A stretch of 63,281 nt of DNA, counting the filler, from Hausera hauseri (taxonomy: Eukaryota): assembly GCA_046269625.1 (NCBI GenBank). It is 12 parts of 12 records of this genome, joined end to end, with 100 filler letters (N's around TTAATTAATTAA, not from the genome) between each part and the next. Parts side by side here need not be neighbours in the genome. Positions count along the whole stretch, not along the records: positions 4,056 to 14,936 come from JBJURY010144424.1; 11 more parts are not named here. One strand, 5' to 3'. The position numbers and the translations under genes were made by a program. Under the pieces are notes generated by a model. That model did not search any database. It was not told where the DNA came from and was given only the letters and a program-made list of their open reading frames with translations. Numbering within the stretch: position 1 is the stretch's first letter; every line of letters begins with the position of its first letter. Shown in pieces: positions 130 to 57,855 of this stretch.

Positions 130-146
130 CCTCACTAGGGGCACCA
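130..146 (-). promoter_or_regulatory. Primer-binding site (elongator tRNA-Met type) of an LTR retrotransposon
   Basis: Minus strand reads ...TTATCA-C-TGGTGCCCCTAGTGAGG, a near match to the complement of the elongator tRNA-Met 3' end (TGGTGCCCCGTGTGAGG). It lies directly after an LTR CA end. Confidence 0.75.
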
Positions 147-147
147 G

Positions 148-895
148 TGATAAGTTTATAGGTTAAGATTTATTGGTCTTACGACCTTAAACTTATACTC
201 TTTACTTAAGACTAAATAGAGTCTGGGTTTTTCCTTCCCCCTAGACCAAAGACAAATTTTTCTTATGAGCAACCTGTGAGATTGCCTTCGAGTCTTATTT
301 GACCTTAGTGTGAAAACCGTTCAGGAGGAACACTGACGGTTTACCCCTTACTTATTAGAATTTATACATCCGGCAAATTACAGGGCCGGAATACCAAAAC
401 GGGTTAGGATTTTAATATTAATTAATCCTTACTACTAACTATTATACTCTACGACAAAACTAAAATCAAATTAATGTATATTAAAAATAATTAATTTACA
501 ATCTATAATCAAAAGAGTACAAAAATTAAAGAAAAAGCTTACAAGTATTGTAATGAAGCATCATAAAGGTAGGTACGAATTGTTGTTCGTTGTCACCAGA
601 AAAGGAATTGTGTTTCAGTCATAAAAATTACGGTATTTATACCAAACCAATACAAATACCATTACGAGAAAAATTTACATTTAATTAAATCCATCACAAG
701 AAAAATAAAAATCAATTAAAATGATCACAAAAGAAACAAAAATCAATTTAAAATTCCAATGCAGGTAGTTTCATATTTCATTGTTTATTTTTTTAGATCA
801 GTCAATTTGAAAGTGCAGTACAGGTAATGACATTGTTTATTTTGTTCGGAGCATGTTTATTTTTCATTTTAGGACCAACGAGTGGTTACTGGACA
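148..895 (-). repeat. LTR of a Gypsy-type element (about 750 bp)
   Basis: Starts TGTCCAG on minus right after the PPT, ends TTATCA before the PBS, has TATAAATA near 634-641, and has a diverged second copy at about 2955-3586. Confidence 0.75.
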
Positions 896-909
896 TCTTC
901 TCCCACCTT
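896..909 (-). promoter_or_regulatory. Polypurine tract
   Basis: Minus strand AAGGTGGGAGAAGA immediately before the TG of the LTR. Confidence 0.7.
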
Positions 910-2284
910 AGGTAAGGTTGTCCTCAGCTTTAAGGCATAGGTTTCTAGGATACCGTTGGAATATTTATAATTAGCGGAACCTATCCGCAACCACTAATTT
1001 CCTTTTCGAATCTTCCTTTTAAGGGTAACTGTTTTTCGTGTAGTTCTTTTCTTCTTTAAAGATTCTGTTAAATCCACTAGGATAGATTCGTTGGAACTGC
1101 TTGCAGGGAGCGATTGATTGATAGTTGGTTGGTTATGTTAGATGTTTCAGGGGTATCGTTAGTATCCATCTATTCGCATTTAGAATCATCTGTCAAGGTC
1201 AATGTTAGGAATTGTTCATTGTCGAGCAGAATTTCGTTTACGGTTGATTCTGGTTTATCTAATTGAGATTGAATGGGTAATTTTTGGAGATTTCCTTTAT
1301 TGATTTTATATTCGTTCATAGAATTGTATATCTTTAATATTGTTGCAGCCTTCTCCTTGGCACGTTGAGGATATACGATGTCATTAAATTTCATTAAGAC
1401 TTGCTTATGGGTCAATGTTTTATCGGGATTTATTTCCGGATGATTTAAAAGATCCCTAATTCCTAATATTGCGTTGGTATCAAAAAGATCAAGGTGTTTT
1501 AAATATCAATTCCAACTATCATCTTTCCATTGAGTTTTTTTCTAATAAGGGATCTAACTTGATAGGCATCTATCTATCCGGTTAAATCTACTTGTTTTAA
1601 TGCAGTGATCGGACTGTTGTAATTATCTATCCGGTCTCGTGGAGTAACGAGTTCGTCCAAAATGATATCTCCTTCAATATCCCTAATGGTTAATTCCACG
1701 AGAGTTGTCTCTTTGTTGCGTAATGGGGTTAGAAGGAAAGCAAAATTTGTTGCCAATATGGCTATTTGATCCTTTGATTTCAGCGGCAATCTGGAGAAGG
1801 ATATTCCGGTTGTGAGCTGATCACGATTGGGTAAATTTGAGGGATATATCGACTTCTCATATTCGATTTTAGGGAGGGTTTCTCTTCGCGTGACCTCAAT
1901 GTAAATTATCGGAGATGGGCCTCCGTAGGTTCGTAAAATAATTGTCACATTCCGGTAAAATTTCTTGTCCACACGAATCGTAGTATATGCCGTGACATCT
2001 GAAGTGTCAGTAAAATCATTTAAGTGTGCTCGGCTTTTTATTTAAAGATGGCCTTTTGCCGTAGACACAAAGACTGACGTGGTTTGACTGGAGATGTCAA
2101 TTAAATCTGAAAGTTTTGTAGAAGTGTTAGGCAATTTCATTATCAATCCGGATCTTTGATGGAGAAGATGGCCTTTTAAGTTGTTGGGTATGAGATTTGC
2201 CTTACCATAATAGACATAATCTTTGTTGTCTGTTTCATTCAAATTGCTGATAATGTTATAATAAAAAGATTTGGTTCTGTCCAT
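910..2284 (-). pseudogene. Decayed 3' accessory gene: unknown N-terminal domain plus inactive REX4/ISG20-like DEDDh exonuclease fold
   Basis: ORF pieces 2042-2284, 1574-1972 and 1170-1415. VELTIRDIEGDIILDELVTPRDRIDNYNSPITAL matches the REX4-type pattern VSIVN.G..VYD..VKP...I.DY.T..SGI, but the DxE motif reads ATNF. Broken by stops and frameshifts. Confidence 0.65.
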
Positions 2285-2325
2285 AAGTTCGGATCCTTCT
2301 TGAACTAAAAGGAAATAAACAAATA

Positions 2326-2958
2326 TTAACCAAAATGATTTAGAGATGGGAATATAAATAAAGGCATTGTCTTTAATTTATAGTTTTTGTAGATTGCAAA
2401 AAATTTCGTGACTTCATTCTGTATCTTTGTACAGTAACACACGGTCATGTCTATTGGTCGACAAACTTGTTGTTTACTTGTTTGATTGTTTTCATTAGGG
2501 AGACTTAATTGGCAGTCTTGCCATTCTGGATTATTCGGCTTTTTAGCGAATGGCTTTTGGGTTGACGGGCAATTCAGCCGTTTAGGAGTATGTGGAATTT
2601 CATCTTTGGGCGCACTCATTTCCCCTGTTAACATGTTTTGGGAGTCTTTTCTTAAAAGTCTTAACTGGTTTATTATTTTTCTTATTTTACGTCGTCGCTG
2701 TCTTATTTTTGAATAATAGATTGTTAAGGGTAAAAATATTATTAATAATATTAAAATAACGCATAGTACTCTAATTATCCAAGGGTATTTATTAGAGGTT
2801 TCTCCTTGGATTGGTATGATAGTTGTTTTCATAACTTTCTTTGTGACAGTCATAGGTGATTTTAACGTTTTCTCTTTCTTTCTGAGAACTTGTAGGATTT
2901 GTCCGTCTTCATCTAGCTCTGTTATCACAATCTTATAATTAATGTCGGGTTCCAGGGT
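2326..2958 (-). CDS. 5'-truncated FN3-end plus transmembrane protein of the LTR element
   Basis: In-frame extension upstream of the called start reads TLEPDINYKIVI (FN3 L.P.T.Y motif). It is followed by TM WIIRVLCVILILLIIFLPLTIYY and a basic stop-transfer RQRRRKIRK. Confidence 0.5.
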   Translation of the reverse strand, partial: TLEPDINYKIVITELDEDGQILQVLRKKEKTLKSPMTVTKKVMKTTIIPIQGETSNKYPWIIRVLCVILILLIIFLPLTIYYSKIRQRRRKIRKIINQLRLLRKDSQNMLTGEMSAPKDEIPHTPKRLNCPSTQKPFAKKPNNPEWQDCQLSLPNENNQTSKQQVCRPIDMTVCYCTKIQNEVTKFFAIYKNYKLKTMPLFIFPSLNHFG

Positions 2959-3586
2959 TGCTTTCAGATTTTATTTGACCTTAATGTGAGAACCGTTCAG
3001 GAGGAACACTGACGGTTTATCCTAACTTAGTAGAATTTATAAATCCGGCAGATTACAGGGCCGGAATACCAAAACGTGTTAATATTTTAATATTAGTTAA
3101 TCCTTACTACTAAATATTACGTAACTATACTTTACAACAAAACTAAAATCAAATTAATATGTATTAAAATAATTAATTTGCAATCTATTACCAAAAGAAT
3201 ACAAAAATTAATGAAAAGACTTACAAGTATTGTAGTGAAGCATCATAAAAGTAAGTACGAATTGTCGTTCGTTATCACCAAAAAAATTGTGTTTCAGTCA
3301 TAAAAATTACAGTATTTATACCAACCCAACATAAATACCATTACAAGAAAAATTTACATTTAATTTATATTCACTACAAAGAAAATAAAAATCAATTAAG
3401 ATGGTTACAGGATAAACAGAAATCAATTTAAAATTCCAATACAGGTAATTTATTTTATCTACTCATATTTCATTGTTTATTTTTCTTTTAGGATTGCCAA
3501 TTCAAAATTGGAGTACAGGTGATCACATTGTTTGTTTTTCCAACATGTTTATTTTTAATTTAGAATCAGCGATTGATTACTGTACA
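2955..3586 (-). repeat. Second, 3'-truncated and diverged copy of the 148-895 LTR
   Basis: Direct repeat, e.g. ttatttgaccttaatgtgagaaccgttcaggaggaacactgacgg (2971) vs ttatttgaccttagtgtgaaaaccgttcaggaggaacactgacgg (295). Starts TGTACAG on minus at 3586. Confidence 0.8.
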
Positions 3587-4055: not shown

Positions 4056-5600
4056 AAAAGCAAACAAAGAGAGGTTAGGACCTACGTTACCCAAGGTTCT
4101 GAGAATACACGTGAAAAGGAAGAAATGGTGGCGTTGAGAACAGTAGAAGTATCGTTAATTAATGGGAATAAAATAAAAAAGGCAGTAATGTTATTAGACG
4201 ACGCTGGTACCGAAAGCTTCGTCGATTCAGGGTTGTGCGAAGAGTTAGGTGTCAGTAAGAAGACGGAAAAATTAACGATAACCGTTGTCGGAGGGAAACA
4301 GACCAAGATGTCTACCGATAGGGTAAAAATGGTGTTACTAAATATGGAACGGTCAATGGAAGTTAAATTTGAATTGTTGGCCATGAGAAAACCTACGGGA
4401 CGAATGAGGACGGTAAATTGGTCTATAGAAAAACAGAAGTGGTTACACGTGAAGAACATAAATTTTCCAAAAATGTCACCCAGTTTGAAAGTGGACGGGT
4501 TTATCGGGGTGAATTTTATGGAACTACATAGGCCGATCAAGGAGGTGTACGGAAAAAAGGGAGCGCCGGTGGCACGATTAACCCCGTTAGGTTGGACATG
4601 TGTAGGAAAAATAAAAAAGAGAAGGAAAATTATAAATAGCACTTTTGTGAGGGCCTTCTGGACTAGAACAGAAGAAATTCAAAATGATTTAAGTCGGTTA
4701 TGGGAGGTAGAGTTCAATATGGATGTAAAAGAGTCTGCAAGGTCTGAACAAAAGGAGAGAGCAGCGAGAAGGATATTAGATGAGATGACTTACGAGGAGA
4801 ATAGATATTGTGTGCCGTTGCCATGGAAAGAAGGAGTACAATCTAAGATGGAAAAAATGAATGGATGGCACATAAACGGTTAGAAATTTTAAAGAGAAAG
4901 CTGAACAAAGATGAAACGGCAAAGGCAGCTTATGAAAAGGTGATAGAAACTCATACCAAGGAAGGATATATCCGAATAGTGAAAGAACAGGAAGAACAAG
5001 AAACGGCTTGGTTACTTCCGAACTTTCCGGTTATGAAGGTCGATAGATACACCACGAAATGTCAGATCGTTTTCGATGCTGCTTCAAAATATCGAGGAAA
5101 ATGTCTGAACGATTTCTTGGACCCCGTCCCGAAATTACAGTTGGACATTGTGGACATTGTATTGAGGATGAGAAAACAGCCGTGGGTTGTCATATGAGAT
5201 ATCCAGGAAATGTTTCTGCAGATCAAGGTGAAACAAGAAGACAAAAAATATTTGAGGTTTCTTTGGTATAAGGAAGGAAAATTCAAAACGTATGAATTTA
5301 ATCGGTTAGTATTCGGATTAAACTCTTCCCCATTTCTGGCACAATTAGTGTCAAGACACAACGCTGAAGTTTTTAAGAAAATATTTCCCCGAGCTGTAGA
5401 GACGATAGAGTGTTCCACGTACATGGACGACTGTATCAACTCAGTTGACACCGAGGGAGAAGCCGTATCGTTATATGGGGAACTAAATAAGATTTGGGAA
5501 GAAGCTGGGATGAAACCACACAAATAAATGTTCAACTCTGTTAAATTAGTGAAGATAATACCTGTCGTAAACCAAGTTAAGGAATTCCACATATAGGATA
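4056..5600 (+). mobile_element. BEL/Pao LTR retrotransposon pol fragment (protease, RT), decayed
   Basis: MLLDDAGTESFV protease, ARLTPLGW, RYCVPLPWK, TTKCQIVFDAAS, DIQEMFLQI, VFGLNSSPFLA and YMDD are all BEL/Pao motifs. Contains frameshifts and stops. Confidence 0.9.
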
Positions 5601-6340
5601 ATTTGTTCGTTCGTAGATGCAAATGTCCTTTATTACGGCCGCACTGTCTCGAGTAACGGCTAATCCGACTGCAAAGAGTTAACGGCTAAAAGGGGTTCAT
5701 CAAAAGCAAATAGGAAAACAGATGCAAAACGTTACACAAAACACGTTAAAAACAAATCTAACTGGTCTAGACAAAAACGCAGAGAAAATAAATAAAATCA
5801 GAAGATAGGCAGGAAGTGTCAATAGATATACTGGTGGCCCTATGTTCGGAAATGGAACGAATAAAAATTAGTAGTAGTATTAGTAGTTTGAGCAGAACCT
5901 GTCATTCCACTCAGTGAAATAAACAAACAAATATTATATGCATGAACAAGGCACTTGACAGACCTGAGTTGACAGGACGATTCGTCTTAAGCTTCAAGTG
6001 TGATGCTCACCTGACCATGCCATTCCCTCACTTCAGAATCTCACAATGCGGAGATTAATGCTGATTACGAGTGTGAGGTTCTCTGACAGTCCCCTCTGAG
6101 GCCACTGATAATATTTTCCTATCTACAGATCTGCCATGCGATATGATAACTGGGCTTGAGAAACCGTCCATTTTCCGTGGCATCCACATAACGTTAACAG
6201 AGGACAAAAATGAAGATGACTGTAGATTTGTGCAGTATAAAGAGCGTGACTACTTACTAACTATTTAAGATCAATACAGAAAACAAATGGTATTTGCATT
6301 TAACTGTCAAGTCTAGTATTAATTGTTTAATACCTTTCAG

Positions 6341-7047
6341 AATTGACGAATGTGTCTATGACACTACTTTCATGACCAAGCAAAATAGATGTAACATAAC
6401 CTATAAGGAGTATAAAAAGATGGCTAGATATAATGACATAGAAATCACTGAAAACTTGTTTGTACTAATTTACCCTAAACAAGATAGGATAGCATTCAGT
6501 TGGAATCACCAAATGAATACACGGAATACTTGGGTGAGTATAACTTGTATAAACCAACATCATCAGCAAAGAGTTATACTTGAAAGGAAACAAAAATACG
6601 TCTACTGCATAGGACTAAGTTCAGATACTGAATATTTAGTAGTAGTAAAGAACTGTACTCATTATTCAGAGATCTATATTAAAACATTGCAGAAAATAAA
6701 TGAAGTAGTCAAATTTAGTTATGATAAAAAAGATGCTAGGAATGAACCTGTGACTATGAAGCCAAAAATTGACAATGTCGAACTAAGTATTACAATATGC
6801 TCTTTGTTAATTATTGTATTAAGTATAGCTTTGTTGTTTGTGTTGGCTATAGGCACTTTAATTATTCCAAAAATAGTTCGACATAATCATACTGACACTA
6901 TCACGTGTCACTGCCCACTAATTTCAAGATGGCGGTCGCAGACTAGTCATCAGCACGAGCAATTACCGCACGCACTACACGCGCCCCCACAAATAGTTAC
7001 ATTATTAGCATATTCATTGGTTATGTGTTGTTTACACACCAACAAAG
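6341..7047 (+). CDS. FN3-like ectodomain plus transmembrane protein (probably spliced) of an LTR element
   Basis: 5' part of ORF 6294-9086 after acceptor cctttcag (6340). Contains IAFSW...GLSSDTEYLVVV (FN3 pattern) and TM LSITICSLLIIVLSIALLFVLAIGTLII. Confidence 0.5.
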
Positions 7048-7103
7048 GTGAGTATTTAAATGAATTTTATTTATTTCCAGCTCTTTGCAAATTTTCCTCA
7101 AAA

Positions 7104-9086
7104 ATGAAACGTCAAAATCCGAAGATGAATAAAACCGAAACACAGATACAATCCAACCTACTATTTTCCAAACTCTGTCCTCAGTATCACGCAGATCAAC
7201 TGGATGCGGCAACTCTAATGCAAAATTACGGAATCAAGAAGGGCACTTTCAGTAAAACTATATCGAAGACTTTTTATAACAATATAAGAAGACACTTAAT
7301 AAAAGAAGAAAATTTCGTAGCTTTAAATGTGGTTCGAATCCCGAACCAACTAAAGCACGAAATTACCGTGAATAGAAACCTCGGAATTTATCAAATCACT
7401 GAAGCCCGCCAGATAGAGCTAAAAAGATATATGGCAAAAACTGACAAAGTAGACGGACTCGTTATTCATGTAGCCAGAGGCATGATTTGCCTAAAAACTA
7501 GAAACGAAACCCAATTCAAGGACCAGAGAGAAAATCTCATATACGAAGAAGAAAGTCAGTTTATCAATACACCTATGAGTGTAGACTTGTTGCAAATAAG
7601 GCCTGTATACCTTCCGGTAATCCTGATGATCGAATGGCTTCTTCCAGAGAAGCATCTATACCTACCACGACCAATGATTCTAGCGCAGAGTCCTCCAGAG
7701 CTAATTAAGCAGAACGGGTTAAATTTTATCAACACGAATCAAAGCAATACTGTTCGGATATTAACAGTGTCTATCGGATATATGGAAGATAACAGTCCTT
7801 TGCCAATACACGTCACGGTAGCAAACAGAAAAGGAGCAATTTTATATGAGGCTATAGTAGCTAATAGAAAGAAACTACATAATTTGAACTCCATAAGACA
7901 CGGCATTCTCTCAGATATTATTTCCAACTACGGACAAGACATATTCGATGTCACCAAGGAGCTAATCAATTGGATATTCGGAACAGTGGTGATTGGAGTA
8001 GAAACACACAAAATGCTCGAGATTTTCGATATCCCCCTAAACTATCTTGCCGGGGTCGTGGACATACTAAAACATGAGGAGATTACAGGAAAAACGTTTC
8101 AGCAGATAACTCTAATGAATGCCAGCATGTTGCTCAAGTTACCTGGACATCAGAGCGGACAAGGTTATGAACAGGATAATCGAGGGAAGTTGAAGTTTAC
8201 AATGGATATTTTCAGATTGATAGTGGATCCGTTAAAAGTAGCATGGTGCCCCCCAGATCCATTTAATAACTTTGTAGATCCAGCAGAATTGTTTTATGAT
8301 GGAGAAAAATATCTGACAGATTTTGCCTGGATACACCATGTAGCAGGAGGATCGAACAAAAATACGGAAATCCTAATAGATGAAATTATGGATGAACTAA
8401 AAACTCCATCAGTCTCAGATATATCAGACATAGTGGCAGAAGAAGAAAAGTTACAAATAGAGGATCGAATTCCCGAAGTTGCGGACAATAATGATGAAAA
8501 TGGGAGAAAGTGGGATTATGAAGGCAGACAAATGAGTTCCGTAGCCATACAGACTGAGGAGACAGATTTCACTAGATTCACTAGGAGAGTCATACAAGGT
8601 TTGGAAGCATCAGAGACATTTACTTTCCCCTTCGGTGTTATCGTGTACACAAGGAATTTTAGTTTCCCAGTAATAATAGATTCGGTAGAAGCTCCTTCAT
8701 ATATCGATCAGACTATAACCAAAATCACTCTACAATCTTGGGATACCTACAGTAATGAGGTTATTGGCTTCATCTTCGAAAGATCCATAGATATCAAGCT
8801 GCTCTATCTGTTTGATAATTACGACAGACTATATCGTCTGCCTATCCGGTTGGACATAGATTTCAACAACAATCTTCCCATACAATTGAAAGATAAATCA
8901 GTAATAACAAAGCTAAGAAGTGAACACAAAGGAGGGAAGCTGATATACATCCTGATAATGAAATATAAGAAACCTTGTTTGATCCCAATTGAGAGAGTGC
9001 CAGAAAAGAAGAGACCAGATCCAGATCAGACCCTGACATTTCGGATCGAAAATGACATTCGTAACATTGTGGATCTTGACTGTTGA
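7104..9086 (+). CDS. LTR-element 3' accessory protein with inactive REX4/ISG20-like DEDDh fold (open frame)
   Basis: ATG follows acceptor ttatttccag (7080). IHVTVANRKGAILYEAIV...HGI...IFGTVVIG...VVD aligns by eye with REX-type exonucleases and with paralogues at 33051 and 54228. Catalytic acidic residues are absent. Confidence 0.65.
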   Translation: MKRQNPKMNKTETQIQSNLLFSKLCPQYHADQLDAATLMQNYGIKKGTFSKTISKTFYNNIRRHLIKEENFVALNVVRIPNQLKHEITVNRNLGIYQITEARQIELKRYMAKTDKVDGLVIHVARGMICLKTRNETQFKDQRENLIYEEESQFINTPMSVDLLQIRPVYLPVILMIEWLLPEKHLYLPRPMILAQSPPELIKQNGLNFINTNQSNTVRILTVSIGYMEDNSPLPIHVTVANRKGAILYEAIVANRKKLHNLNSIRHGILSDIISNYGQDIFDVTKELINWIFGTVVIGVETHKMLEIFDIPLNYLAGVVDILKHEEITGKTFQQITLMNASMLLKLPGHQSGQGYEQDNRGKLKFTMDIFRLIVDPLKVAWCPPDPFNNFVDPAELFYDGEKYLTDFAWIHHVAGGSNKNTEILIDEIMDELKTPSVSDISDIVAEEEKLQIEDRIPEVADNNDENGRKWDYEGRQMSSVAIQTEETDFTRFTRRVIQGLEASETFTFPFGVIVYTRNFSFPVIIDSVEAPSYIDQTITKITLQSWDTYSNEVIGFIFERSIDIKLLYLFDNYDRLYRLPIRLDIDFNNNLPIQLKDKSVITKLRSEHKGGKLIYILIMKYKKPCLIPIERVPEKKRPDPDQTLTFRIENDIRNIVDLDC

Positions 9087-9282: not shown

Positions 9283-9295
9283 AAGGGTCGGGGAT
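9283..9295 (+). promoter_or_regulatory. Polypurine tract followed by LTR start (TGTTG at 9296)
   Basis: AAGGGTCGGGGAT|TGTTGTG about 200 bp after the ORF stop, the same layout as 56480. Confidence 0.6.
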
Positions 9296-9900
9296 TGTTG
9301 TGGATTAGTCAGCTAATAGTCTAGACTAGTTGGACTAGTCTAACCTTGATATTTAAATATACTGCGCGCGGCTAGTTTAAATTGCCGATTAAATTGAGGT
9401 TTGCGCCGGCGCTAGATTTGGATTAGGAAAAAATTATATAAATACTTGGTTGAAAATCATTAAAGGGACAACAAACAAAAACAGAAAAAAATTTCTATTG
9501 GTCTAGCTTTTAGACAAATTTGTGGAATTTATTGCTATTTGCGATCTGAGGCATTGAAGCTTAATTTGAAATTTCTAGATAGAAATTTTATTTGAAATTT
9601 TTTGGAGTAAGTTTTAGTAGATAATCGTGTTAGTTAGTTATTATCTTTTATTGGTAAAATTGATCATTTCATTTACATTTTTGTGTACGAATTGTGTGAA
9701 ATTATATTTATTTACTTAGACTCATTTCTGTTTATAAGTAAAATATTGAAGCACGTCTTGCAGAGAAGGCGTAGCTAATTAAACAAGTCTTCTTATCTTT
9801 TTCCTTAACACAGCAAACACTTACATATAATTAATCAGTATAAATTACCCTCAGATTTGTACTTAAGAGTTTTCGTTTAAGAAATTTATTTGAGAATTCT
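9296..9900 (+). repeat. Putative 3' LTR (end not determined)
   Basis: Begins TG after the PPT. TATATAAAT near 9436 is followed by short GT-AG intron-like segments (9654-9719, 9738-9813). Confidence 0.45.
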
Positions 9901-9921
9901 TAAAAAACAATAATAATATCT

Positions 9922-10515
9922 ATGGCCAATTTCAATAGATTTCAGGATAAAATATTTTCAACAGACATACTAACAGGTCTATTAGAGTGTTTCGTACATT
10001 TTCCATATAACGGTTACATAGCTCATCTCACTGATCAAGATATGGACAAAATCCACACGGGAGAGCCAAGCTTTGTATTTGCGTTATACGTGCAAGCACT
10101 TGCTAGCTTCTCAACACCAAATTTATGGACGATTCTTTTTATGGCTACTTTCGCTTTGCATGAAATCCAAGCGACGATCATCATCATCATCGATATGTTA
10201 GTAATTGCTTGTGCCGATACATTTTTGGTCCAACATAACTTTAGGCAAAAAATTATCCTGTTGATCATTGTTTGCATGGCTATGTTTATTGGATCTTTTC
10301 TGTTTACTATTCCGAAAGGTGGCATTTGGATGTTAATATTTGGTGTCATCAATTCTACCTATGTGGATATAATTCGTGAAAAAGCGGTCTTCTATGGTCA
10401 ACTACAACAAAATATAGCGACGATACGGGAATGTATCTTACTATCAATTACACAAATTGTCGACTCACGCCAACAACCACAAATACCATTATTTATTTTA
10501 CCTTTCTCGGTATAG
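9922..10515 (+). pseudogene. Intronless, diverged fragment of an SLC6 (sodium:neurotransmitter symporter) gene, about TM7-TM10
   Basis: GEPSFVFALYVQALASFSTPNLWTILF resembles SLC6 GPGLAFIVYPEAL..LP..PLWSILF. VCMAMFIGSFLFTIPKGGIW resembles C...FL.GL...T.GG.Y. Confidence 0.65.
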
Positions 10516-11562
10516 GTAAATATCTCTCTGAAAACAGTGTCCAAATCTATAGTGACGACTTGTTCAAAGCCTTATGTATCTTGAAGAGGTTTGATAACCA
10601 AACTCACTGTGATCTTTTAATTAATAACATTGTATCTTCCACCTACGAAAAAAAAATTAATGTTGACGTTTCATTGAATATCTATTCTGATCCAACTTTT
10701 ACAACGCCGGTCAAACGTAGTGAACAGTTATTTAAACTCATTCTTAATTCAAACCGAGAGAGAGGAGCAACGAAATCATCAATGTTGATTAGTAGGCGAA
10801 TTGCTGAACCGATTATTTTGAGTAGCCAAATGAACCAGGGTTCGTTTAACCATGATGATGAATCTGCAATAGCTACTGCATCTAACGTAAAACGAGTCGC
10901 ATCGAGACCCATACGTTCTGTTGCCAGAGTCTTTGTAGCTTTTCAGCTACAGATGGCTCCAGATTATAACCGTAAACGCCATCAAAGTCGACTTAGTAGT
11001 AACGTTCACGTTTCTTCACACGAACAAGACCCTTAGTTGTTTGTAAATGATTTCTCTAACGTCTACCTTTTGCGTCTTTGTCCGAGCTACCACGAATCTC
11101 AGCGGACATTATTGTTCTTGCTCGATGTGGATTATTGAAACCAACTACAAATTATTCGCATCTTTATCAAATTTCTGCAGAATTCCAAACTTTTATCAAA
11201 TATTCCAAACATCTATACCAGATAACACCCTGCATTTTCGTGCCCGCCATACCGAGGCGGAGGTTCCGGCCGCCAATCCTGCGCCGGTCGGTCGGACGGC
11301 GCCTTCTGCGTCGGCCCCACAGCACGCCACCAGGCCCACCTCTGTTCCCACTTCCGTTTTTTACTTTTTTAACAATATACATATTTATACTCTCAACACA
11401 ACACATCCACACATTCCCACTCTTCAGACCCGCATATCTTCTTTCCTTGGTTCTTCTGACTTTTATCTCACCCATCACGGTACTATCATACATCTCAACA
11501 AAACTTTACTTCCCTCTTCAAATCATGCTTGCTTCAACATACATCTCCATATCCGTGGTGGC

Positions 11563-14500
11563 ATGAATTCTTCCCCAACTATTGACATCACGGATACAAC
11601 CATCTCAAAAAATCCAATACCCATTCTTTACTACTCCAAACCAAACCCCCATCTACTTTACTCGATGCAAATCCTCACAAAAATCCTACCAATACTTCAC
11701 ACTGCACTGAATACTTCATAGATAATGAAAAGTCCAGTAAAACGTGGCTTCACTTCCATCAACTCTGGCTACAATCCAACGGTACCACAGACTCCTTATC
11801 CAAAGCCCATAGCCTACTCTGTCTTCTCCCAAACTCCATAAAAGCCTCAATCCATAACTTACTAGACATTTTTAAACACCCTGACCATTATACCCAATTA
11901 TTCGACGCTGTATTAAAACTGACTCCATAATGTAACATTTCTTTAATGAAAATGCAATGGGGACACAAAAACCCAGTGACTTCCTACGCATCTCGTTGGC
12001 ACACTTCCGTACTCTTGCTGTAACTAAGGAGCACAACCCAGATCTCCTACGTCACTATTTTCTTAATGCGCTACCTATCCAAATCCGGACCCTCCTTACC
12101 GCTTGAAAAATTGGCCGAATTGGCCGATAGGACACACGATGTCCTACACGCAAATTCTCCACCAGTCGTTTCAGCAGCAGTTACCACAAATGATAACACA
12201 TCTATAGAACAACAACTTAATCAGCTATGTGCTGAAAACATTGCATTACATGCAACAATCAACAACATCAATAACAAATTGAACTAATTGTCTCTGTCAC
12301 GACGAGGGGGTTTTGCCGCTGATCGTACCCATTCTGTGTCATAAAACCGCTCACCATCGCCTGCGCGTTCGTCGATCTGCTATTACCACAGCAGATTCAA
12401 CACTAATGCTCAGAAATGCTGCCTAGGGTGCCAATTTTATAACAAGACATTTTCCTCAAGCACCGTTGTTTGCATTTACCATGCAAGGTTTACAAATCAA
12501 GCTCGTAAATGTATCCATGGCTGCACCTTCAAATCCAATAAGAACGACGGACGTACTGCCTTTCCTTCTAACAGTCGTCCCAGTTCACCGTTTCAAAAAA
12601 ACTAACTTCACCTCCAGAAGTCACGGCAAACTCTGGAAAAGGCACTACTTTACATTCTGATCGCCGACATGTCTCTTTCGCCGCAATCACTGCTCCTACA
12701 ACGCAATCTGTTGATTTCTTCATCGATGTAGGTGTAGTGATTTCTCTATTACCGCAAAACTTTCCTGTTCAAAACTCTCCATTCAAACTTAAGTCCTTAT
12801 ACACTGCTTCAGGCCAACCGCTGCACATTTCTGGCACGACTAAATTATCTTTCACTCTGCCGAATTTTCTTCCACCCTTCCACTGGACGTTCACAGTCGC
12901 TAATGTCCAGTCGGCAATTCTGGGATCTGACTTTCTCTCACACTATAACTTACTGGTTGACTGCAGTCAAAGATGTTTGAGGAACGGCACCACTGGCCGC
13001 ATTTCTGGACTTGTAAATAGCATTTCGTCTACAGCGCAGTCGACCGGAATGCGGAAGCCTATTTTAAAAAAGTTTACGAATAGTTCGATTTTTATAACAA
13101 TAATTCTATTCGAAAATTTTTAAACAATAATGTGGATATACGATCGAGGTTTGATGTCGATGAGTGTGGTACTGCCACCAACATTGCTCCATTCAGCGAA
13201 GTAACTTCACCCAACACCATCTTCAATTCAACCATCTTACACCAAATACCACTTGACTGCACATCACCTAACAACTCACAAATTTCATCTGCTACTACTC
13301 AAGCCGTTTCACCACCTTCACCAAATCTCTCACAGTTACCAAGAACTTTACAACAGTTCGTCAACACATCATGTCCACGCGTACTTAAAAAAGTCCGTAC
13401 CTTTTACTCCCGCAAATAGTACTTTACACCATATAGTCACTTAGCATCAACGTCCAATACGCCAAAAGGTACGACCTCTGTCACCTCGCCGTAGACAGGC
13501 CGTAGAAGCCGAATTCCTTGAGCTAGAACGTTTCGGCATAGTACGCCGTTCCAAATCTCCTTGGTCATCACCGTTACACGTTGTACAAAAAAGGACGGTA
13601 TCTTTAGACCATGCGGTTACTACCGACAGCTAAACAACTTGACTATCATGGATGCGTATCCTTTACCACTCATCAAGGATATCGTGCATCGTCTTAATTC
13701 AACCACCATTTATTCAACCATTGATTTAGCTAAAGCATACCATCAGATACCGGTAGCACCCGAAGACATAGAAAAAACCGAAGTAACTACTCCTTTTGAT
13801 CTCTACAAATACCTATGCATGCCATTCGGTTTTCGAAATGTCGCACAAACTTTTCAGCGCCACATCGATTCGATTCTTGCAGATTTCCCGTTTGCACACC
13901 CTTACATCGATGATATTCTAGTCGTTTCATCTTCGGCCAAGCAACACGAAGAACACCTTCGCGCAATATTTCAACGTCTCAACCACCATAATCTCCAAGT
14001 CAGTTTAAACAAATCAAACGCATTTGTTTAAAAAAAACGCATTAACTTTTTAGTCCACGTTATTACACCAGACGGTCATTCTCCCCAATTAGACCGAGTC
14101 GAAGCTCTTAAAAACATCCAGTTGCCACGTTCGACCACCGAAATGAGTAGCTTCCTTGGCACACTCCACTTTGTACATAAATATTTACCACATTGCTCGG
14201 AATTGACAGCATCATTCGCACATCTAAGCGGCGGCAAAAACATCTGCCAATCCAGTGGACACCCGAATTGGTTGACAAATTCGACAAGCTACGTGAAGAC
14301 ATCAAAACTGCAGATATTCTAGCCTTTTTCAAGCCTGATGCAGAACTCATCCTTATTACAAACGCGTCAACCACTGCTGTAGGCGCTGTACTCCACCAAA
14401 TCTACAAGGGAGAAAACCAATCATTAGAATTTTTCTCTCGCAAACTAACCGCACCGGAAACCAGATATTCCACATTTGATCGAGAATTATGGCAATCGCA

Positions 14501-14936
14501 TTGGCAAAGCACTACTCACACCTGCTTGTCGCTCGTCATTTTACTCTACAAACTGATCACAAGACTTTACTTAACATCATGGCCATGAAACATCCTTACA
14601 CACGTCAAGAACGACAAATATCATAATTATCTACATTTAACTTCGATATTAAACATATTAACGGAGTTAACAATTTAGTTGCAGATTTTTTATCTAGGTC
14701 GGTTAGTTCTATTAATTTTTCTCCGATTTTTACGCAAGACCAACTTCAACAGAATCATCCACCTCAAGACATGCTTAAGTCTTTTAAATCTTGCACAATC
14801 GCTGACGGCATGGCTTTGGACACCTCCAAACCAGGTCATTCCGTAATGATCCTAGCACCATCTTTGCAAAGGCAAGCATTTCACAGCATGCATTCATTAC
14901 ACCATCCTGGTGCTAAAGCCACTTTTCGTCTTCTTC
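11563..14936 (+). mobile_element. Gypsy LTR retrotransposon, CsRn1-like (gag with CHCC knuckles, protease, RT, RNase H, integrase start), decayed
   Basis: CYYHSRF..AQKCCLGC and CIYHARF..ARKCIHGC; protease FFIDVG and ILGSDFL; RT DLAKAYHQI, MPFG, YIDD; RNase H NASTTAVGAVL, YSTFDREL; integrase HSLHHPG. Confidence 0.9.
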
Positions 14937-20120: not shown

Positions 20121-20322
20121 TACCAATGTCAACGTGACACACAACGATATTGTATAAAATTTTCATCAAATTGTCTATTACAAATTGCGGGAATGATAGC
20201 AGCAAGTTTCGCTCGTGTCTGGATGGTGTTTTGAGCAAAGCAATAAAGTACGGCTGACTACGTTTAAATCGCATTTTTGGACGTATTGATTCTGAGACGT
20301 AGTTGTTTATAACCGTTGCCAC
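20121..20322 (-). pseudogene. Polinton small ORF (paralogue of 60497-60838)
   Basis: MATVINNYVSESIRPKMRFKRSQPYF is nearly identical to the ORF at 60497. Confidence 0.75.
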
Positions 20323-20499
20323 TGTGACGGTAATTTGCGTCTAGTTGTTGTTGTTGTTGTTTTTCGAAGCACAGGATTGATTGATCGCTTGACTGTAGCG
20401 GTTAGTTTTGAGACAAGTTTCTTGTCGGGCACCCGCTTGGTAGATTTACGTTTAACAATTGTTTTTCGAAAATTCTTTATTTTATCACAATTATGTCGT

Positions 20500-20850
20500 C
20501 GACTTTTGAATTTGTTTATAGACCTATACACCTTTCTGATTGAAAACGTCTGTTTGTACAAGCATGTCATCGGGACACTGTTGGGTAAAGTTTATGAACA
20601 AGTATCTGTGTGGCTCGGTCGTAGCATCATGATATGCATATATCAAGTAGGCTTGGTTTTGAGGAAATGCTTGTCGTGCAACATAATCAATGATAGTCTG
20701 ATCACGGGAATTTTTGAACAACAATGAATAGTATACGTTAAGATTTCTTGTTCGATGTTGTCCGCCCTGATGGAACATGTTTTGCATAATGAAAATAACA
20801 GACACATCACGGTGTCGTAAAATTTTCGTAAACAGGTTGATGAACAGGTT
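20500..20850 (-). pseudogene. Polinton packaging ATPase, C-terminal half
   Basis: LFTKILRHRDVSVIFIMQNMFHQGGQHRTRNLN...LFKNSRD...PHRYLFINF is the A32-like ATPase C-terminus. Confidence 0.85.
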
Positions 20851-20969
20851 ATTGAAATATACAACAAAACAATATACATAGGATATCACAGTTAGGATTG
20901 TCACAGTAACTGAACTGAACTGAACTGATTTGTCTGAACCGACAGAGCTCCAATTGTTTAAACATGCGT

Positions 20970-23900: not shown

Positions 23901-24495
23901 CTACCACCAGAAACTGCTTCAGAGCTGCAGGTGTCGGTACGAATGATCGTCCAAACAAATATATTATGTCACTCGACTTTGTTATGATAATGCCGAGGGT
24001 GACAATCTTTACAATTCGCCATCCATTACCATTTTCCATGTAATTGGCGATTTTTTCCTCGAGCTTTTCGCCAATCTTAGAGATAAAATTCTCGGTATAT
24101 GGTACAGCTCTATGTGACAGGTACCACTGCTTCCTGTCGCCTTGCACGTTTTCGAATTCTGCAAGTGCATAATACTGCACTTTGCAATTGTGTTGGAATT
24201 TGGCCACTTCAGATTCCAACCGGTTTCGCATAATGGATGGAGCATGTCTCAATTGCGTTGTTGTTGTTGCTGTTGTCGCTGACATGTTCACTTTTATATC
24301 CACGTACGATTTTTTCAGATCGTACATGACAGTAATGCGTGGTTCCTTCCCCTGTTGCTCCTGTTTCTGCTGCTGATGTTCCTTCTGCTGTTTTTGATTT
24401 CTGTTGTTTTGCAAGTATTTATCAAGGCTTGTTGATGCCTGACGTTTACTACTTGTTGAGAGAATACAGCTGCTGCTGCTTTTTGCTGCGTCCAT
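20970..24495 (-). pseudogene. Polinton/adintovirus protein-primed DNA polymerase B with endonuclease VII-like insert, decayed
   Basis: CFLYSILA; CYLC...DHFTDRYLGAACNSCNL; PVVFHNFMNFD; FFDSLQFL; KGIFPHDF; YIDINNLYGWA; KNNSLYGKTVEN; LDLSKLRMY; TDSL; KVALSCNDDKR; AYGHW. Confidence 0.92.
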
Positions 24496-24577
24496 TAATG
24501 TTTGTTTTTTTCGACCGCTTAAACTTGTTTAAGTGGCCATTGTGCTGATTATAAATTGTTCATAGTTTATTTGATCA

Positions 24578-33050: not shown

Positions 33051-34131
33051 TTAACTAGAATGTCGCCAATGTAAATTCAACATAGCATCCTTGGGCAAAG
33101 ATGAGAGTCCCTGCTCATCCATATGTTTGTTATTTATCTTTTCTACCGATTTACTGTATCGGTCTCCTTGAGGCAATCTGTAAATCAGTGCGTCTATTTC
33201 GCATTGTTGACCATTGATCATGGTGAATTGATCCACAACGATTTTCGGAGTCCTCTTGATTTTGATTGATTTTGGAGAGGAAATTTTCTTGAGCCGCTTG
33301 GGAGAAGATGGAGAAAGAGAAGCAAAGGATGTTGAGAGTGTGGGTTCTTTTGGTGGTTTTTGTGAAAGATAATTTTCGCCATGATCAAGATCAGTTGATG
33401 GTGTGGCCATTGTTGTTTTGTTAGTTCTATCATCAGGACAAACGTCGTCATAGTATATATCTACAGTTTGATACGCTTTCAAGTAGGCTTTGGCTAATGG
33501 AAGGGCTCTCATGGAGAAACTTCTTGTTTGCTCCACTTCCATTGCGAAGATACGGGTGTTTTCTGAATTAAGAGATTTGTATTTGTCTATTAAGGGTTTA
33601 TAATACATAAGATCCCTTAGTCCTTGGACAAATAGGAGATCTATCTGGAATAGGTGTTCAATAGCATACGCCAACTGACATCCGATAAGTAATTTCCCTT
33701 TTATTAAACTCAATATGATTTTCCGAGCGTCGTAATAGTCAGTTTGACCTCTTACGTGTATTTCCTGAAGGCCGGTTAAATGGGTTTCGTAATTTTCTAT
33801 CTTTTCACGGGGAGTAATTAACTGATTCATAATCACGGATCCATGTAAGTCTAATATAGCAACTTCTATTGTGGATGCTATTTTCTGGGGTTGGAGAGCA
33901 AATATGGTGGCGATGACTAATTGATTTTCTTCTTTAACTATAGTATTTCGTCTAAATGAGATACCAGTTCTAATGTTTGGGATAGCAGATGTCAAGTCGA
34001 ATGTGGGCTTCGCGGTACTTGTTGGAATATATACATTTTCTTTTTGCATGCCTTCTATAGCTATTAGTGCTCTTTCCGTTTCGAGTCGAATTAAAAGCTT
34101 TCTTTTCTGTCTCAAGGTTGTATAAATACTG
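33051..34131 (-). CDS. LTR-element 3' accessory protein with inactive REX4/ISG20-like DEDDh fold (5' cut by linker)
   Basis: EVAILDLHGSVIMNQLITPREKIENYETHLTGL...LIKGKLLIG...GLRDLMYYKPL closely follows the REX4 pattern. DxE reads ATIF and the GH...ND motif reads GCQLAYA. Confidence 0.75.
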
Positions 34132-44261: not shown

Positions 44262-44269
44262 ATCAAAAC

Positions 44270-51726: not shown

Positions 51727-51739
51727 ACCCCAGTCCGTT

Positions 51740-53809: not shown

Positions 53810-54227
53810 NNNNNNNNNNNNNNNNNNNNNNNNNNNNNNNNNNNNNNNNNNNNTTAATTAATTAANNNNNNNNNNNNNNNNNNNNNNNNNNNNNNNNNNN
53901 NNNNNNNNNATAATAGAATTAAAAAGATATTCTAGAAAAAGAATTATTATGAATCAGACCCTATTATTGTCAACTAACCTAATTTGCTTAATAGGTTGTG
54001 GTGTGGAGTGGACCGTCGACGCTAAGGATATGAAAAGCTTTAAATGTCAATATGCAAAAATACACACATATAGAAATGCAACACCATGCAACACTAAACA
54101 ATTACAACCAATAAATAAACATCAACTAAGAAAGCCAATAATAATAAACAATACAAACACCTACACTAAAGACGGGCTATTAAAAACAACCCGTAGTATG
54201 ATAATACTTCTTTTCAGTCAAATTCCA

Positions 54228-56312
54228 ATGTCCGACAGATTTCTTCAATCAAAAATGATCAAGGCAGACGTAGATCTGGACGCAACATCAGAGTCAGATT
54301 CAGATACTTCAATCGACACAGTGATCCTAAATCCTAAAAGGAAAGTGCTTCCATCAACACATTTCACCTTTTCAAATCCAACTCAAGGAGTACAGTTTCA
54401 AAGAGAAATTTGTAGCAATAATATACGTAAATCAATATCAATCTCAAATGAAATAACCAAATCGCGACTTCAATCAATGGTAGAAGTAAGAAAACCTGCT
54501 CCATCTTACAACGATATATCTCCCATGAAAAGAGATGAAATTATGCTCAATTTGCAAGAATTAATCAGTGAACAGGAAACTCTATGGCCATGGGACGCAG
54601 TAGCAAAAAAGTATGTGAAGATATTACATGGGACTAATAATCATCTACCCCTTGGATTTTACAAAACTATTAAAAACATGATGGAAGAAACAAATGAAAT
54701 TTTTTATCCAGAGGCAAGAATGATTGATAATGCTCTAAAAGTTACCACTACCGAAGAAAGAATGTTCCGTATCATAAAATTACTGACACCAGTCTATAAC
54801 GAAAATCTACTGAACACGCTTAAATATTCAGCGGTATCGAACTGTAGTAAAATAATCGTGCATTTGATCCAAGGACAGATACAATTACGAGCAGAGAAGG
54901 AATCATTTGTCTCGAATCAATTCCCTTATCTATTACAAGCCTATACCACAATGGAAATGCAAAATACTATTGTTAAACACTCAATTTATTTCCGTACAGC
55001 AACAGTTCCTACTATAATAGCAATAGAGATCTGTCAAAAGTTCAATTTGTATAGAAATTTGGAACCGCCAATGTTCTACAAAACCCCACAAGGGAAGATA
55101 GTTCAAAATTTTCAGCTAACAAAAGCTGACAATTATCGTTATTTAGCCACCTCTTTGGCCTATTCAACAAGAGGTAAAATGCTTCCAGTAGAAATCATCA
55201 TAGCCGATAAAACAGGGTTGATTATTTATCATGATTATGTGAATCCTAGAATGAAGATAGATAATACCAACGAGCACTATCATGGGCTTAATAAACAAAT
55301 ACTAAGTCAATCAACGGATGAAGAGGAAGTTAGATATGAAGTCATGAAGTACTTATTTGGGCACATTGTAATTAGTGTAAACACCATTGCAATCCTGCAA
55401 GCCCTACAGATACCTTTTGATATATTACACGGTATCATAGATTTATTTGCAGCAAAAAACTCGCTGAATCGATATCAGGATGCCAATGAAAAAATATGTC
55501 TTAGTAAACTACCAACGGTTTACGGATTCAACCAAGACTTTCCTAAGAACGCGGAATCCATAATAAGTATGGTCGTAAATATTCATAAATTAGTCTCAGA
55601 ATCCTGCACTAACGAAACCTGGATGATGGATTGGGAACCTCCTCCCAATAATCTAATCCATAATGGATCTTTTCATCTCATTGATGATAAATATCATAAC
55701 AACTACGTGGAAGAAAAGTCAGAAAGTAACGCTCCAACAGTTGCTCAATGCATTAAAGATTATGTAATAAGAAACCAGCAAAAGAAAAACCAAACCACAG
55801 ATCAAGTCCAACAACAAGGGATTAGATTATCCTTAATCCTGTACGAAAATGAATTTAGAATAATCAATGTTAGATTTTTACACCAACCCACAGTCCAGAT
55901 AAACAAGGATCAATGTATATTAACTAATTACAATCTTGGACGATTGGTTGGACTAGTATTTAAGCATGCTAATCAAAGCACGCTACACCTATGTACCATA
56001 GGTATAGAATATGAAATTATTAGGGAATTGAATCATGATCTTATAAAAAATATCCAACCAATATTTCTACAATTGGAACCTAAACCACTTCCTAAACCAA
56101 GGAGTGGTAAGCCACTGATCTGTACATATAACCTCAAAATGTTGCTATACCTTAATTGTGAAGAATACGTATTAGAAAATCTGTACAACATGACAGCAAA
56201 TCAGGAGCTAAACCAAACTCCTATTCAGACGAACCAAGTCATAATCCAGTTAACTCACAAGTCAGCAGAACAATATCCAACACCAAACCCAACCAGTTCC
56301 AGTCAAGGATAA
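54228..56312 (+). CDS. LTR-element 3' accessory protein with inactive REX4/ISG20-like DEDDh fold (open frame)
   Basis: ATG follows acceptor cttcttttcag (54217). PVEIIIADKTGLIIYHDYVNPRMKIDN..HYHGL...LFGHIVI...GIIDL; DxE reads ATSL. Paralogous to 7104-9086. Confidence 0.7.
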   Translation: MSDRFLQSKMIKADVDLDATSESDSDTSIDTVILNPKRKVLPSTHFTFSNPTQGVQFQREICSNNIRKSISISNEITKSRLQSMVEVRKPAPSYNDISPMKRDEIMLNLQELISEQETLWPWDAVAKKYVKILHGTNNHLPLGFYKTIKNMMEETNEIFYPEARMIDNALKVTTTEERMFRIIKLLTPVYNENLLNTLKYSAVSNCSKIIVHLIQGQIQLRAEKESFVSNQFPYLLQAYTTMEMQNTIVKHSIYFRTATVPTIIAIEICQKFNLYRNLEPPMFYKTPQGKIVQNFQLTKADNYRYLATSLAYSTRGKMLPVEIIIADKTGLIIYHDYVNPRMKIDNTNEHYHGLNKQILSQSTDEEEVRYEVMKYLFGHIVISVNTIAILQALQIPFDILHGIIDLFAAKNSLNRYQDANEKICLSKLPTVYGFNQDFPKNAESIISMVVNIHKLVSESCTNETWMMDWEPPPNNLIHNGSFHLIDDKYHNNYVEEKSESNAPTVAQCIKDYVIRNQQKKNQTTDQVQQQGIRLSLILYENEFRIINVRFLHQPTVQINKDQCILTNYNLGRLVGLVFKHANQSTLHLCTIGIEYEIIRELNHDLIKNIQPIFLQLEPKPLPKPRSGKPLICTYNLKMLLYLNCEEYVLENLYNMTANQELNQTPIQTNQVIIQLTHKSAEQYPTPNPTSSSQG

Positions 56313-56479: not shown

Positions 56480-56494
56480 AAGGGGGGGGGAAGA
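56480..56494 (+). promoter_or_regulatory. Polypurine tract followed by LTR start (TGTTG at 56495)
   Basis: AAGGGGGGGGGAAGA|TGTTGG. Confidence 0.85.
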
Positions 56495-57855
56495 TGTTGG
56501 AGTAGCAGTGTAAGAAGCAGCCTTGTATTGATTTTTTCAATAAGAAAAAACTACGTTAAACATATGTAAGTAGTTGTGAATCTACTGTGCGTTGCACCAA
56601 ATGATTCTGATATTTTTTCGATCGCATATTGTAATTTCTATATCGGCTAAACTGTTGTTAATCAAAGATAACTGTGATAACATTGAAGTTGCAGTGTGAT
56701 TTTGGTTATAGTGTAATTGTTAAAGTTGCAGTATGATTTTTAGTAATTCAACTTGAATCAACTAATTAGTTTGTCACCAAAAGAAGTAACGATTAAATTG
56801 TAATATTGATGCATAGTCAGTTTTGTTAATAAGTATAGTGATTGATGATTTTACGATATACAGTTTAAATTAGGTTTTATGCAATTGCTTTACAATGCTG
56901 ATAGTTTTGTGTAAGAAAAGTATAATAGATTAGTGCAGTTGAACGATTTTAAAATGTAAATTTACTTAAGAAAGTATAAAATAATTAATCAGTTTGTTAC
57001 TAAAAAGGGTAACTACTACCCACATTAAATTAAATTAAGTAACTGTAACCTACGGGATAATAATGAAGTTTTAAGGTAACAACTACCTACAACAATTGTC
57101 TAAAATTAGTAAAAAGGGACCTACAAATGTAAAGTTAAAATAGTAAACCACACCTACTAAATAAAGTCGGGTATAAAAGTAAACAGTAAATCGTCAAAAA
57201 TCGCCCTCAAATCATTGCGGTTAAATTCCGAAGTTGAGATAGCCAAATTTTTGATCCAACAAGGTTGGTAAAGTATCTTTGTTATTCTATTGTGTTTATA
57301 TTTTTCTTTATTTCGTGATTGGTGTTATAATAAAAAATACAATTGTTATTTTTAACCTTCTTCTATAACTATCAAAATCTATTCCGCTAAAATAACGCGA
57401 CGTGGCACCTGAAACACAAGTAAGGTACGCCATTAACACACCAATTAATCTAAAATTCTAAACCTTAGGGTCAAATAACTCTTTCTTCAATTAAAATTAT
57501 CTCATTTGAGAACTTAAACTCTTTAAACAAGGGAATTGTACAACGACAATTGCCAATTGAATCACAATAGTATTAAATGTGCATTGCGGCGTTTTTGAAA
57601 CGTTTGAAAATCAGAATTGAATATTTAATTTGGAGTTACCAGGAAAGACTGGAATTCTTTTTCGCTAGAAACGCAATCAATAAAGAATTGCAACATCAGC
57701 AGACATTAAAACTACAACAAGAAACGTTAAAATCACAACAAGAAGTTATTAACCTACAAAAGAGTAAGAAAAGGAAACTATTTTCCTTCAAAAGAGACAA
57801 GAATCCGAAGTTTTAAATTGTAAAGCATTTGAAATTTTGGACACTGAACCAACAT
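56495..57855 (+). repeat. Putative 3' LTR interrupted by a mariner
   Basis: Starts TG after the PPT, has short internal repeats (aagttgcagt twice), TATAAAA near 57172, splice donors and a small ORF at 57577-57816. Confidence 0.5.

Follow-up and report, generated by a model that had tools for sequence, protein, structure and literature searches.

The gene at positions 7104 to 9086 belongs to a lineage whose four copies in the window are ISG20/REX4-fold proteins without catalytic residues, and they are predicted to be inactive as nucleases. On the best reading, LTR retroelements of an AT-rich animal carry it at their 3′ end as an accessory gene. It is likely that the gene has been retained as a non-catalytic accessory protein.

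Four divergent copies of one gene

The window, meaning the whole stretch of DNA analyzed (63,281 nucleotides, 36% GC), is made of 12 contigs of 4–11 kb joined by N/linker spacers. The contigs are merely joined, so adjacency across spacers is uninformative. Most of the content is decayed mobile elements of a eukaryote, and no tRNA or Rfam matches were found in the window. The four copies are named by position and strand (W1, 2284 minus; W2, 7104 plus, the main locus; W3, 34131 minus; W4, 54228 plus), and each lies on its own separate contig:

1170..2284, minus strand: W1, broken gene copy, with stops at 2044 and 1576 and a frameshift near 1500
7104..9086, plus strand: W2, accessory gene, open frame of 660 aa, with a beta-helix domain, a predicted dead DEDDh domain and a poorly modeled C-terminal region
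33051..34131, minus strand: W3, open frame with its 5′ end cut by the contig end and a predicted dead DEDDh domain
54228..56312, plus strand: W4, accessory gene, open frame of 694 aa, with both domains and a predicted dead DEDDh domain

A sequence-only reading of this DNA had proposed four paralogues, and this was borne out. A profile built from homologues only recovered all four through its nuclease part (E values against window frames of 2.6e-30 for W3, 1.1e-26 for W4, 2.3e-18 for W2, and 1.2e-13 for W1) and no further convincing copy in the window. The copies share 16–30% identity, are intronless, and sit on repeat-rich contigs. W1 had been placed at 910–2284; the gene is there, but it ends near 1170 rather than at 910 and its frame is broken. 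The same reading described open frames of about 350–700 aa in three copies among elements riddled with stops, and both parts hold. W2, W3, and W4 have no frame breaks in 6.3 kb, versus fifty-four in 14.4 kb (about 3.7 per kb) of the seven other mobile-element coding regions that served as background, the borders of which were drawn by eye. W1 has three breaks in 1.1 kb. The open frames of W2–W4 fit selection and equally fit young insertions.

The nuclease fold is kept and its active site is lost

The C-terminal domain of the protein was identified from the W2 model, for which pLDDT was mostly above 84 over residues 50–320:

7731..8249, plus strand: ISG20/REX4-type DEDDh fold of W2, with 0 of 5 catalytic residues (model and alignment)

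The model matched ISG20 (1wlj) with Z 16.5 (rmsd 2.6, 156 aligned residues; Foldseek E 4.4e-7), and the domain scored 0.94 to RNase_T clusters in Atlas. Exuperantia, a DEDD fold that lacks the usual catalytic set and binds RNA, matched the W2 model with Z 10.1. At the sequence level, W3 matched human ISG20 (phmmer E 6.1e-9), and a four-copy profile matched ISG20L2, ISG20, and SDN1 (E 1e-5 to 2e-4). The proposed REX4/ISG20 scaffold is thus confirmed, and with it the RNase H-like DnaQ fold. A phmmer search of PDB sequences gave no match for the W2 nuclease domain and E 0.087 for W4. Pfam gave no match for W1–W4; its RNase_T family matched eighteen of the fifty-five alignment members, the four window copies not among them, and genes invisible to Pfam in this way are probably under-annotated.

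The DEDDh catalytic set consists of four acidic residues plus a His (PMC9157404). Placed by reference to ISG20, the five catalytic positions are T-S-M-Q-K in W2, A-I-A-M-L in W3, and A-S-I-K-I in W4. The ExoI Asp-x-Glu is present in none of the four copies (W1, also dead at this site, has A-x-N), and the ExoI motifs quoted in the sequence-only reading (ATNF, TVSI, ATIF, ATSL) read alike here. The ExoI strand is free of acidic residues in all four copies, which excludes a shifted ExoI site. The ExoII Asp, at the ISG20 D94 position, is replaced by Met in W2, Ala in W3, and Ile in W4; the acidic residue that stands four residues before it, where ISG20 has D90 (Glu in W2, Asp in W1), is not the D94 site. 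The ExoIII His-x4-Asp is absent in W2, W3, and W4, where the local alignment is gappy; the segment has no His in W3 or W4, and W2 has none at the site. Loss of the later Asp residues, which had been claimed for all copies, therefore stands for these three, while in W1 the ExoII site falls at the frameshift and is unscorable, and the ExoIII His and Asp are absent by eye in the second frame.

A beta-helix domain precedes the nuclease domain

A second domain, which the earlier reading had missed, lies at the N-terminus:

7236..7649, plus strand: W2 N-terminal double-stranded beta-helix domain, AlkB/2OG-oxygenase- or cupin-like (model; without HxD/E..H or RxxxxxR)

W2 residues 45–182 were modeled as a double-stranded beta-helix, with pLDDT 82.9 when folded alone. 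VIA matches included ALKBH6 (Z 10.6, rmsd 5.6, 144 aligned), Ofd2 (Z 10.5, rmsd 3.2, 132 aligned), OsALKBH1 (Z 10.3, rmsd 3.4, 130 aligned), prolyl hydroxylases (Z 10.0–10.1), and the cupin 1yhf (Z 10.0, rmsd 2.7, 94 aligned). By title, forty-nine of the fifty VIA rows among the matches listed are oxygenases or cupin-type proteins. AlkB-type structures aligned over 130–144 residues (Z 10.3–10.6) and cupins over 90–105 (Z up to 10.0), a difference in Z within 1, and Foldseek puts cupins first. The longer alignment leans toward the 2OG-oxygenase type, but the two types are tied. Identity to solved structures is 10–16% or less.

The AlkB motif set comprises an HxD/E..H iron triad and an RxxxxxR 2OG motif (PMC9289625). 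The ordered set was found in 0 of 47 rows, with one conserved His column, and the domain seems to lack catalytic function also in those relatives whose nuclease site is intact. Throughout the family, this domain is what stays conserved. The complete W2 model has a pTM of 0.58, with about half of it at low confidence; this pTM hints that the two domains may pack rigidly. The C-terminal regions of W2 and W4 matched no family and have a low-confidence model.

Relatives include active and inactive forms

A profile search of the database returned 182 proteins, of which the best 150 of 182 were considered. Fifty of the matches listed start in the N-terminal part of the profile and were kept, and the 100 nuclease-only ones were dropped; cellular hits match only the nuclease part. 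Because dead copies supplied the query profile, the ratio of active to dead relatives is biased. Among the matches listed, ExoI is kept in 21/50 homologues, sixteen of these twenty-one reading DEED, and the grouping into intact and lost rests on ExoI. Forty-three of the homologues among the matches listed cover all five sites; twenty keep all of them, twenty keep none, and three keep one or two. Active relatives carry His at ExoIII. The label of a ‘pseudo-exonuclease’ family suits certain sub-lineages but not the family as a whole, about half of the relatives having the full catalytic set. Word-indexed homologue searches found no match for W2 or for the alignment, and one relative for homologue P0001.

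Trees were built without the catalytic columns, using thirty-nine rows after fifteen fragments or long branches were dropped, with a 37-row rerun. Four changes are needed (three to five across bootstrap trees, never one), and a single origin of all dead rows was rejected (p-AU 0.026). By this reconstruction, the catalytic site was lost at least twice in the family. A single all-dead group of thirteen rows (support 88/97, or 88/95 without W2) holds the window copies, of which W2 and W4 are long branches. The tree is unrooted; we take the direction as active to dead because the cellular relatives are active.

Dead rows retain the non-catalytic core of the nuclease, including a Pro-Arg pair (97–100%) and a Gly/His loop beside the cleft. 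They also retain the N-domain Asn, Lys, Arg, His, and Glu at 77–97%. Three of these positions are stricter in dead than in active rows (Lys, 93% vs 68%; Arg, 93% vs 63%; Glu, 91% vs 76%).

Association with LTR elements

The sequence-only reading placed the four copies at the 3′ ends of LTR elements. LTR context was read for the four window copies, and database homologues were compared as proteins only. The clearest case is W1:

148..895, minus strand: W1 3′ LTR, TG...CA
896..909, minus strand: W1 polypurine tract
2305..2311, minus strand: splice-acceptor-like motif, 20 nt 5′ of the W1 ATG
2326..2970, minus strand: W1 upstream membrane-protein ORF, 5′-truncated
2719..2775, minus strand: transmembrane helix of the W1 upstream ORF
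2958..3586, minus strand: W1 5′ LTR copy with TG start, its 3′ part lost at an internal deletion

W1 is the one copy that lies between two matching LTRs, the 5′ LTR copy being 83% identical over 638 nt to 282–895. The order is partial 5′ LTR, deletion, end of the membrane-protein ORF, broken gene, polypurine tract (PPT), 3′ LTR, and PBS-like motif. This last motif, at 146, is directly past the 3′ LTR, and a tandem or nested element is the reading we offer for it. No window copy has both outer element ends, the W1 3′ LTR running into the PBS-like motif.

The W2 locus has a similar cassette next to a truncated reverse transcriptase (RT):

4056..5560, plus strand: truncated BEL/Pao-type protease and RT
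5832..5840, plus strand: PBS-like motif between the truncated RT and the W2 cassette
6261..7103, plus strand: upstream membrane-protein ORF, in frame and stop-free with W2
6795..6851, plus strand: transmembrane helix of this ORF, hydropathy 3.2
7074..7080, plus strand: splice-acceptor-like pyrimidine tract and AG, 23 nt 5′ of the W2 ATG
9283..9295, plus strand: imperfect polypurine tract, followed by TGTTG at 9296

The TGTTG is a candidate 3′ LTR start of a W2 element, the end of which is unfixed (a 6-bp inverted match lies at 9468–9473), and the candidate upstream and downstream LTRs of W2 do not match each other. The BEL/Pao RT is cut short near 5560. Between this point and the W2 cassette, neither an RNase H nor an integrase was found, nor any Pfam match in three frames of 5560–6302, and no continuous PR-RT-RH-IN lies upstream of the cassette. 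The PBS-like motif at 5832, whose tRNA identity is presumed, suggests a junction between two elements. Inclusion of the RT in the W2 element is unsupported, the RT being broken off and the motif intervening. The upstream ORF gave no match in Pfam or PDB searches; its Atlas score of 0.89 to FN3+TM clusters is below the 0.9 threshold, so an FN3-like ectodomain is a lead only.

W3 was searched for a PPT and an LTR, and neither was found. Its last codons overlap a 37-nt direct repeat (33046–33082, with the other copy at 32387–32423). W4 has the following features:

53910..54227, plus strand: 106 stop-free in-frame codons upstream of W4, reaching the contig end
54211..54217, plus strand: W4 splice-acceptor-like motif
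56480..56494, plus strand: W4 G-rich polypurine tract
56495..57261, plus strand: W4 candidate 3′ LTR, 767 nt, with a 7-bp terminal inverted repeat

W4 could also be read as a tandem element, with a PBS-like motif at 57403, but the LTR end at 57261 is the likelier reading. A contig carrying env-PR-RT-RH was ruled out as the upstream part of W4, the two being on separate contigs.

A strict PPT+TGT filter finds nine sites in the whole window. W1 and W4 pass it, with PPT+TG located 170–270 nt downstream of each gene where 0.02 are expected per 300 nt; W3 has no PPT by this filter. A clear PPT and TG had been reported at three copies, and that description is right for W1 and W4 and too generous for the imperfect tract of W2. 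Matching LTRs are found around W1 alone: W2 has no match, and W3 and W4 are cut by contig ends. Linkage to LTR elements is therefore shown for W1, likely for two copies, and not shown for the fourth. A position between integrase and PPT had also been expected and is seen at no copy, W3 and W4 beginning at contig ends and W1 being internally deleted. No gag-pol with integrase was found upstream of the gene on the four contigs, of which two are cut and one is deleted.

Two further features recur upstream of the gene. In each of the three copies whose 5′ end is intact, an acceptor-like motif occurs 10–23 nt ahead of the ATG, versus 93 of 2327 window ATGs (4%), by a criterion that was set after seeing the three copies. 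Two copies (W1, W2) have an upstream membrane-protein ORF, and the two ORFs show no significant similarity to each other.

A possible role in shielding element RNA

The earlier suggestion of an anciently captured gene kept for a non-catalytic job agrees with the fold, the 16–30% identity, and the open frames, while it had overlooked both the N-terminal domain and the intact relatives. We propose that the gene would sit downstream of a membrane-protein ORF and be expressed from a spliced subgenomic mRNA, as retroviral accessory genes are. Its product would combine a metal-free AlkB/cupin-type beta-helix domain with an ISG20/REX4-type DEDDh domain. The ancestor would have been an active 3′-5′ exonuclease, and the window lineage would have lost all catalytic residues long ago with both folds kept. 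The emptied nuclease cleft may hold element RNA, and the protein could shield or escort this RNA past host 3′-5′ nucleases and small-RNA surveillance.

We favor an RNA-binding shield because the cleft loop is conserved and because Maelstrom and EXD1 have been described as inactive DEDD derivatives that retain RNA binding (PMC5408684). Several points count against it: with net charges of 0, −4, and +1, the window copies lack a basic nuclease domain, gag-pol was not found in cis, the W1 frame is interrupted, young insertions would have open frames just as well, the profile is biased, and W2 and W4 are long branches. Weighing these, we give the shielding mechanism slightly less than an even chance.

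The N-domain signature, found in active and dead rows alike and at some positions stricter in the dead, would also suit a protein in which the beta-helix domain binds a host protein or modified base and the nuclease domain is a structural partner that loses its site freely. Repeated loss of the nuclease site fits this division of labor, and there is a precedent in the inactivated prolyl hydroxylases C10, C4, and A37 of poxviruses (10.1101/2022.11.22.517515). The conserved loop residues beside the nuclease cleft in dead rows speak against it, and we judge it unlikely, though it is the strongest of the alternatives.

The protein may instead, or in addition, be the cytoplasmic tail of the membrane protein, linking the element RNP to the membrane in place of a canonical Env. 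The order would be ectodomain, transmembrane helix, and then both dead domains. W2 and its upstream ORF form a single 941-codon stop-free frame, and the in-frame codons upstream of W4 are similarly open, but the W1 gene and membrane ORF are separate and in different frames. Most homologues, among the sixteen listed, start just before the N-domain, the acceptor-like motifs precede an internal ATG, and the two membrane ORFs are dissimilar, all of which makes such a tail improbable.

Host genes, domesticated or cellular, could lie near LTR relics by chance. The missing gag-pol, the lack of an LTR at W3, the mismatched candidate LTRs of W2, and an intact W2 beside an RT with three frame breaks are what this would predict. 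The paired LTRs of W1 and the PPT+TG downstream of W1 and W4 are not, nor are four divergent intronless copies on repeat-rich contigs, and we see little chance that the copies are host genes. That dead copies are functionless passengers decaying after nuclease loss is very improbable: the background-like breaks of W1 and the long branches fit decay, but copies only 16–30% identical still share both folds and core residues, the all-dead group is deep, and the W2–W4 frames are unbroken.

A more far-reaching reading is an undescribed lineage of complex invertebrate retroelements with a two-gene 3′ cassette, in which an FN3-like membrane protein occupies the env position next to a spliced dead-AlkB/ISG20-like fusion. 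This is possible, though we lean against it. If true, the fusion would have two switchable forms: an active one that degrades RNA, and a doubly dead one, evolved repeatedly, that captures either RNA or surveillance factors of the host. Retrotransposons would then encode a counter-defense built of two pseudoenzymes.

Comparison with known systems

Most extra ORFs of LTR retrotransposons lack an explanation, and in animals only a few retrotransposon proteins are known to act against host RNA surveillance. The family is a natural experiment, one two-domain protein with a complete nuclease site or, after repeated independent losses, none. Comparing its active and dead members may reveal what use a retroelement has for a captured nuclease and how it can do without catalysis. 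A beta-helix/DEDDh fusion was not described in the literature searched, with Repbase, GyDB, and subscription papers outside the search. The gene is not a member of the bdelloid ORF3, KolobokD, or orchid families, and it is neither a working DEDDh nuclease nor a working 2OG oxygenase.

The suggested parallel with a 3′ ORF of Burro elements was not supported: an exonuclease is absent from the extra Burro domains given in a review (PMC6431247). A Burro-like layout, with a giant polyprotein and env between gag and protease, is present on the contig at 49134–53809, apart from every copy.

Bdelloid Juno and Vesta LTR retrotransposons and Terminons carry a DEDDy exonuclease as ORF3 (PMC5408684). The likeness is that of a DEDD-superfamily exonuclease as an extra 3′ ORF, some members being DEED (PMC5408684). 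ORF3 is RNase D-like and intact as described there, whereas the present family is ISG20/REX4-like DEDDh, fused to a beta-helix domain, and includes dead lineages. The ExoIII His of active relatives and best matches of ISG20 type place it outside the DEDDy group. KolobokD DNA transposons likewise carry a DEDDh accessory nuclease in an invertebrate transposon (PMC9587614). That nuclease has been likened to Exuperantia/TREX/ERI1 rather than ISG20/REX4, and no mention of a beta-helix domain was found in that report (PMC9587614).

For the N-terminal domain, an AlkB-like m6A demethylase domain in an orchid Ty3/Gypsy element is another 2OG-oxygenase fold in an LTR retrotransposon (PMC9289625). The orchid domain, a recent one, still carries HxD/E..H and RxxxxxR and is reported to be functional (PMC9289625), in contrast to 0 of 47 rows here and a tied cupin alternative. 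Poxvirus C4, C10, A37, F11, and A51 provide an inactivated beta-helix enzyme fold in a mobile element (10.1101/2022.11.22.517515). They are DNA-virus proteins that, as described in that source, are without a nuclease fusion, and the likeness is one of shared fold class only.

Among cellular proteins, ISG20, ISG20L2, REX4, SDN1, and Pan2 are the closest matches of the C-terminal domain in fold and sequence, but the window copies keep 0 of 5 of the scorable catalytic residues of such DEDDh nucleases. Maelstrom and EXD1 combine a DEDD fold without the usual catalytic set with RNA binding (PMC5408684); as host genes of other DEDD subfamilies, they are analogues in how the protein may work.

Sequence around the accessory genes

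The following features lie beside W2, the accessory-gene copy at 7104-9086 (+):
5936-6270 (+): broken frame pieces with cysteines, immediately 5' of the membrane-protein ORF upstream of W2
9904-10515 (+): sodium:neurotransmitter symporter fragment of 203 codons (Pfam E 2.3e-13)
The broken pieces may be the decayed 5' ectodomain of the membrane ORF, and the symporter fragment is probably a host gene or pseudogene.

A near-identical pair of PBS-like motifs of the elongator tRNA-Met type was found at 138-146 (-) and 43917 (+). Because the motif at 138-146 comes directly after the 3' LTR of the W1 accessory-gene copy, it suggests a tandem or nested element.

Near the W3 copy, at 32387-33082, a 37-nt direct repeat (92%) occurs on both sides of about 620 nt that contain an imperfect palindrome (32840-33010). 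This region, which runs into the end of W3, is possibly an insertion. Elsewhere, 44090-44267 is a 180-nt palindromic stretch with 86% self-complementarity.

Among the database homologues of the accessory protein, P0008 has a RING finger at its C-terminal end. In P0002, P0012, P0014, and P0046, a hydrophobic stretch and a Gln stand directly ahead of an internal Met, the pattern that a translated splice acceptor would give.

Other genes and mobile elements

Additional features of the window are as follows:
45470-45973 (-): intronless Atg10/Atg3-type ORF (Pfam E 9e-20)
26842-28934 (+): decayed DNA transposase-like frame
58000-58750 (+): decayed DNA transposase-like frame, mariner-type (Pfam E 4.4e-23)
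20121-24528 and 59975-60701: Polinton/Maverick-like region
11300-14936 (+) and 38793-40352 (-): related copies of a decayed Gypsy pol
49134-53809 (+): decayed Gypsy-type element

The Polinton/Maverick-like region has family B polymerase-like motifs, recognised by eye, and shares an 84% identical stretch with another contig; a Pfam search of the region returned no match. The Gypsy pol copies are 78% identical across 1.6 kb. In the Gypsy-type element, a fusion glycoprotein of the Monjiviricetes type (Pfam E 8.6e-18) precedes protease, RT, and RNase H. PMC6431247 describes this env-before-pol order for Burro elements.
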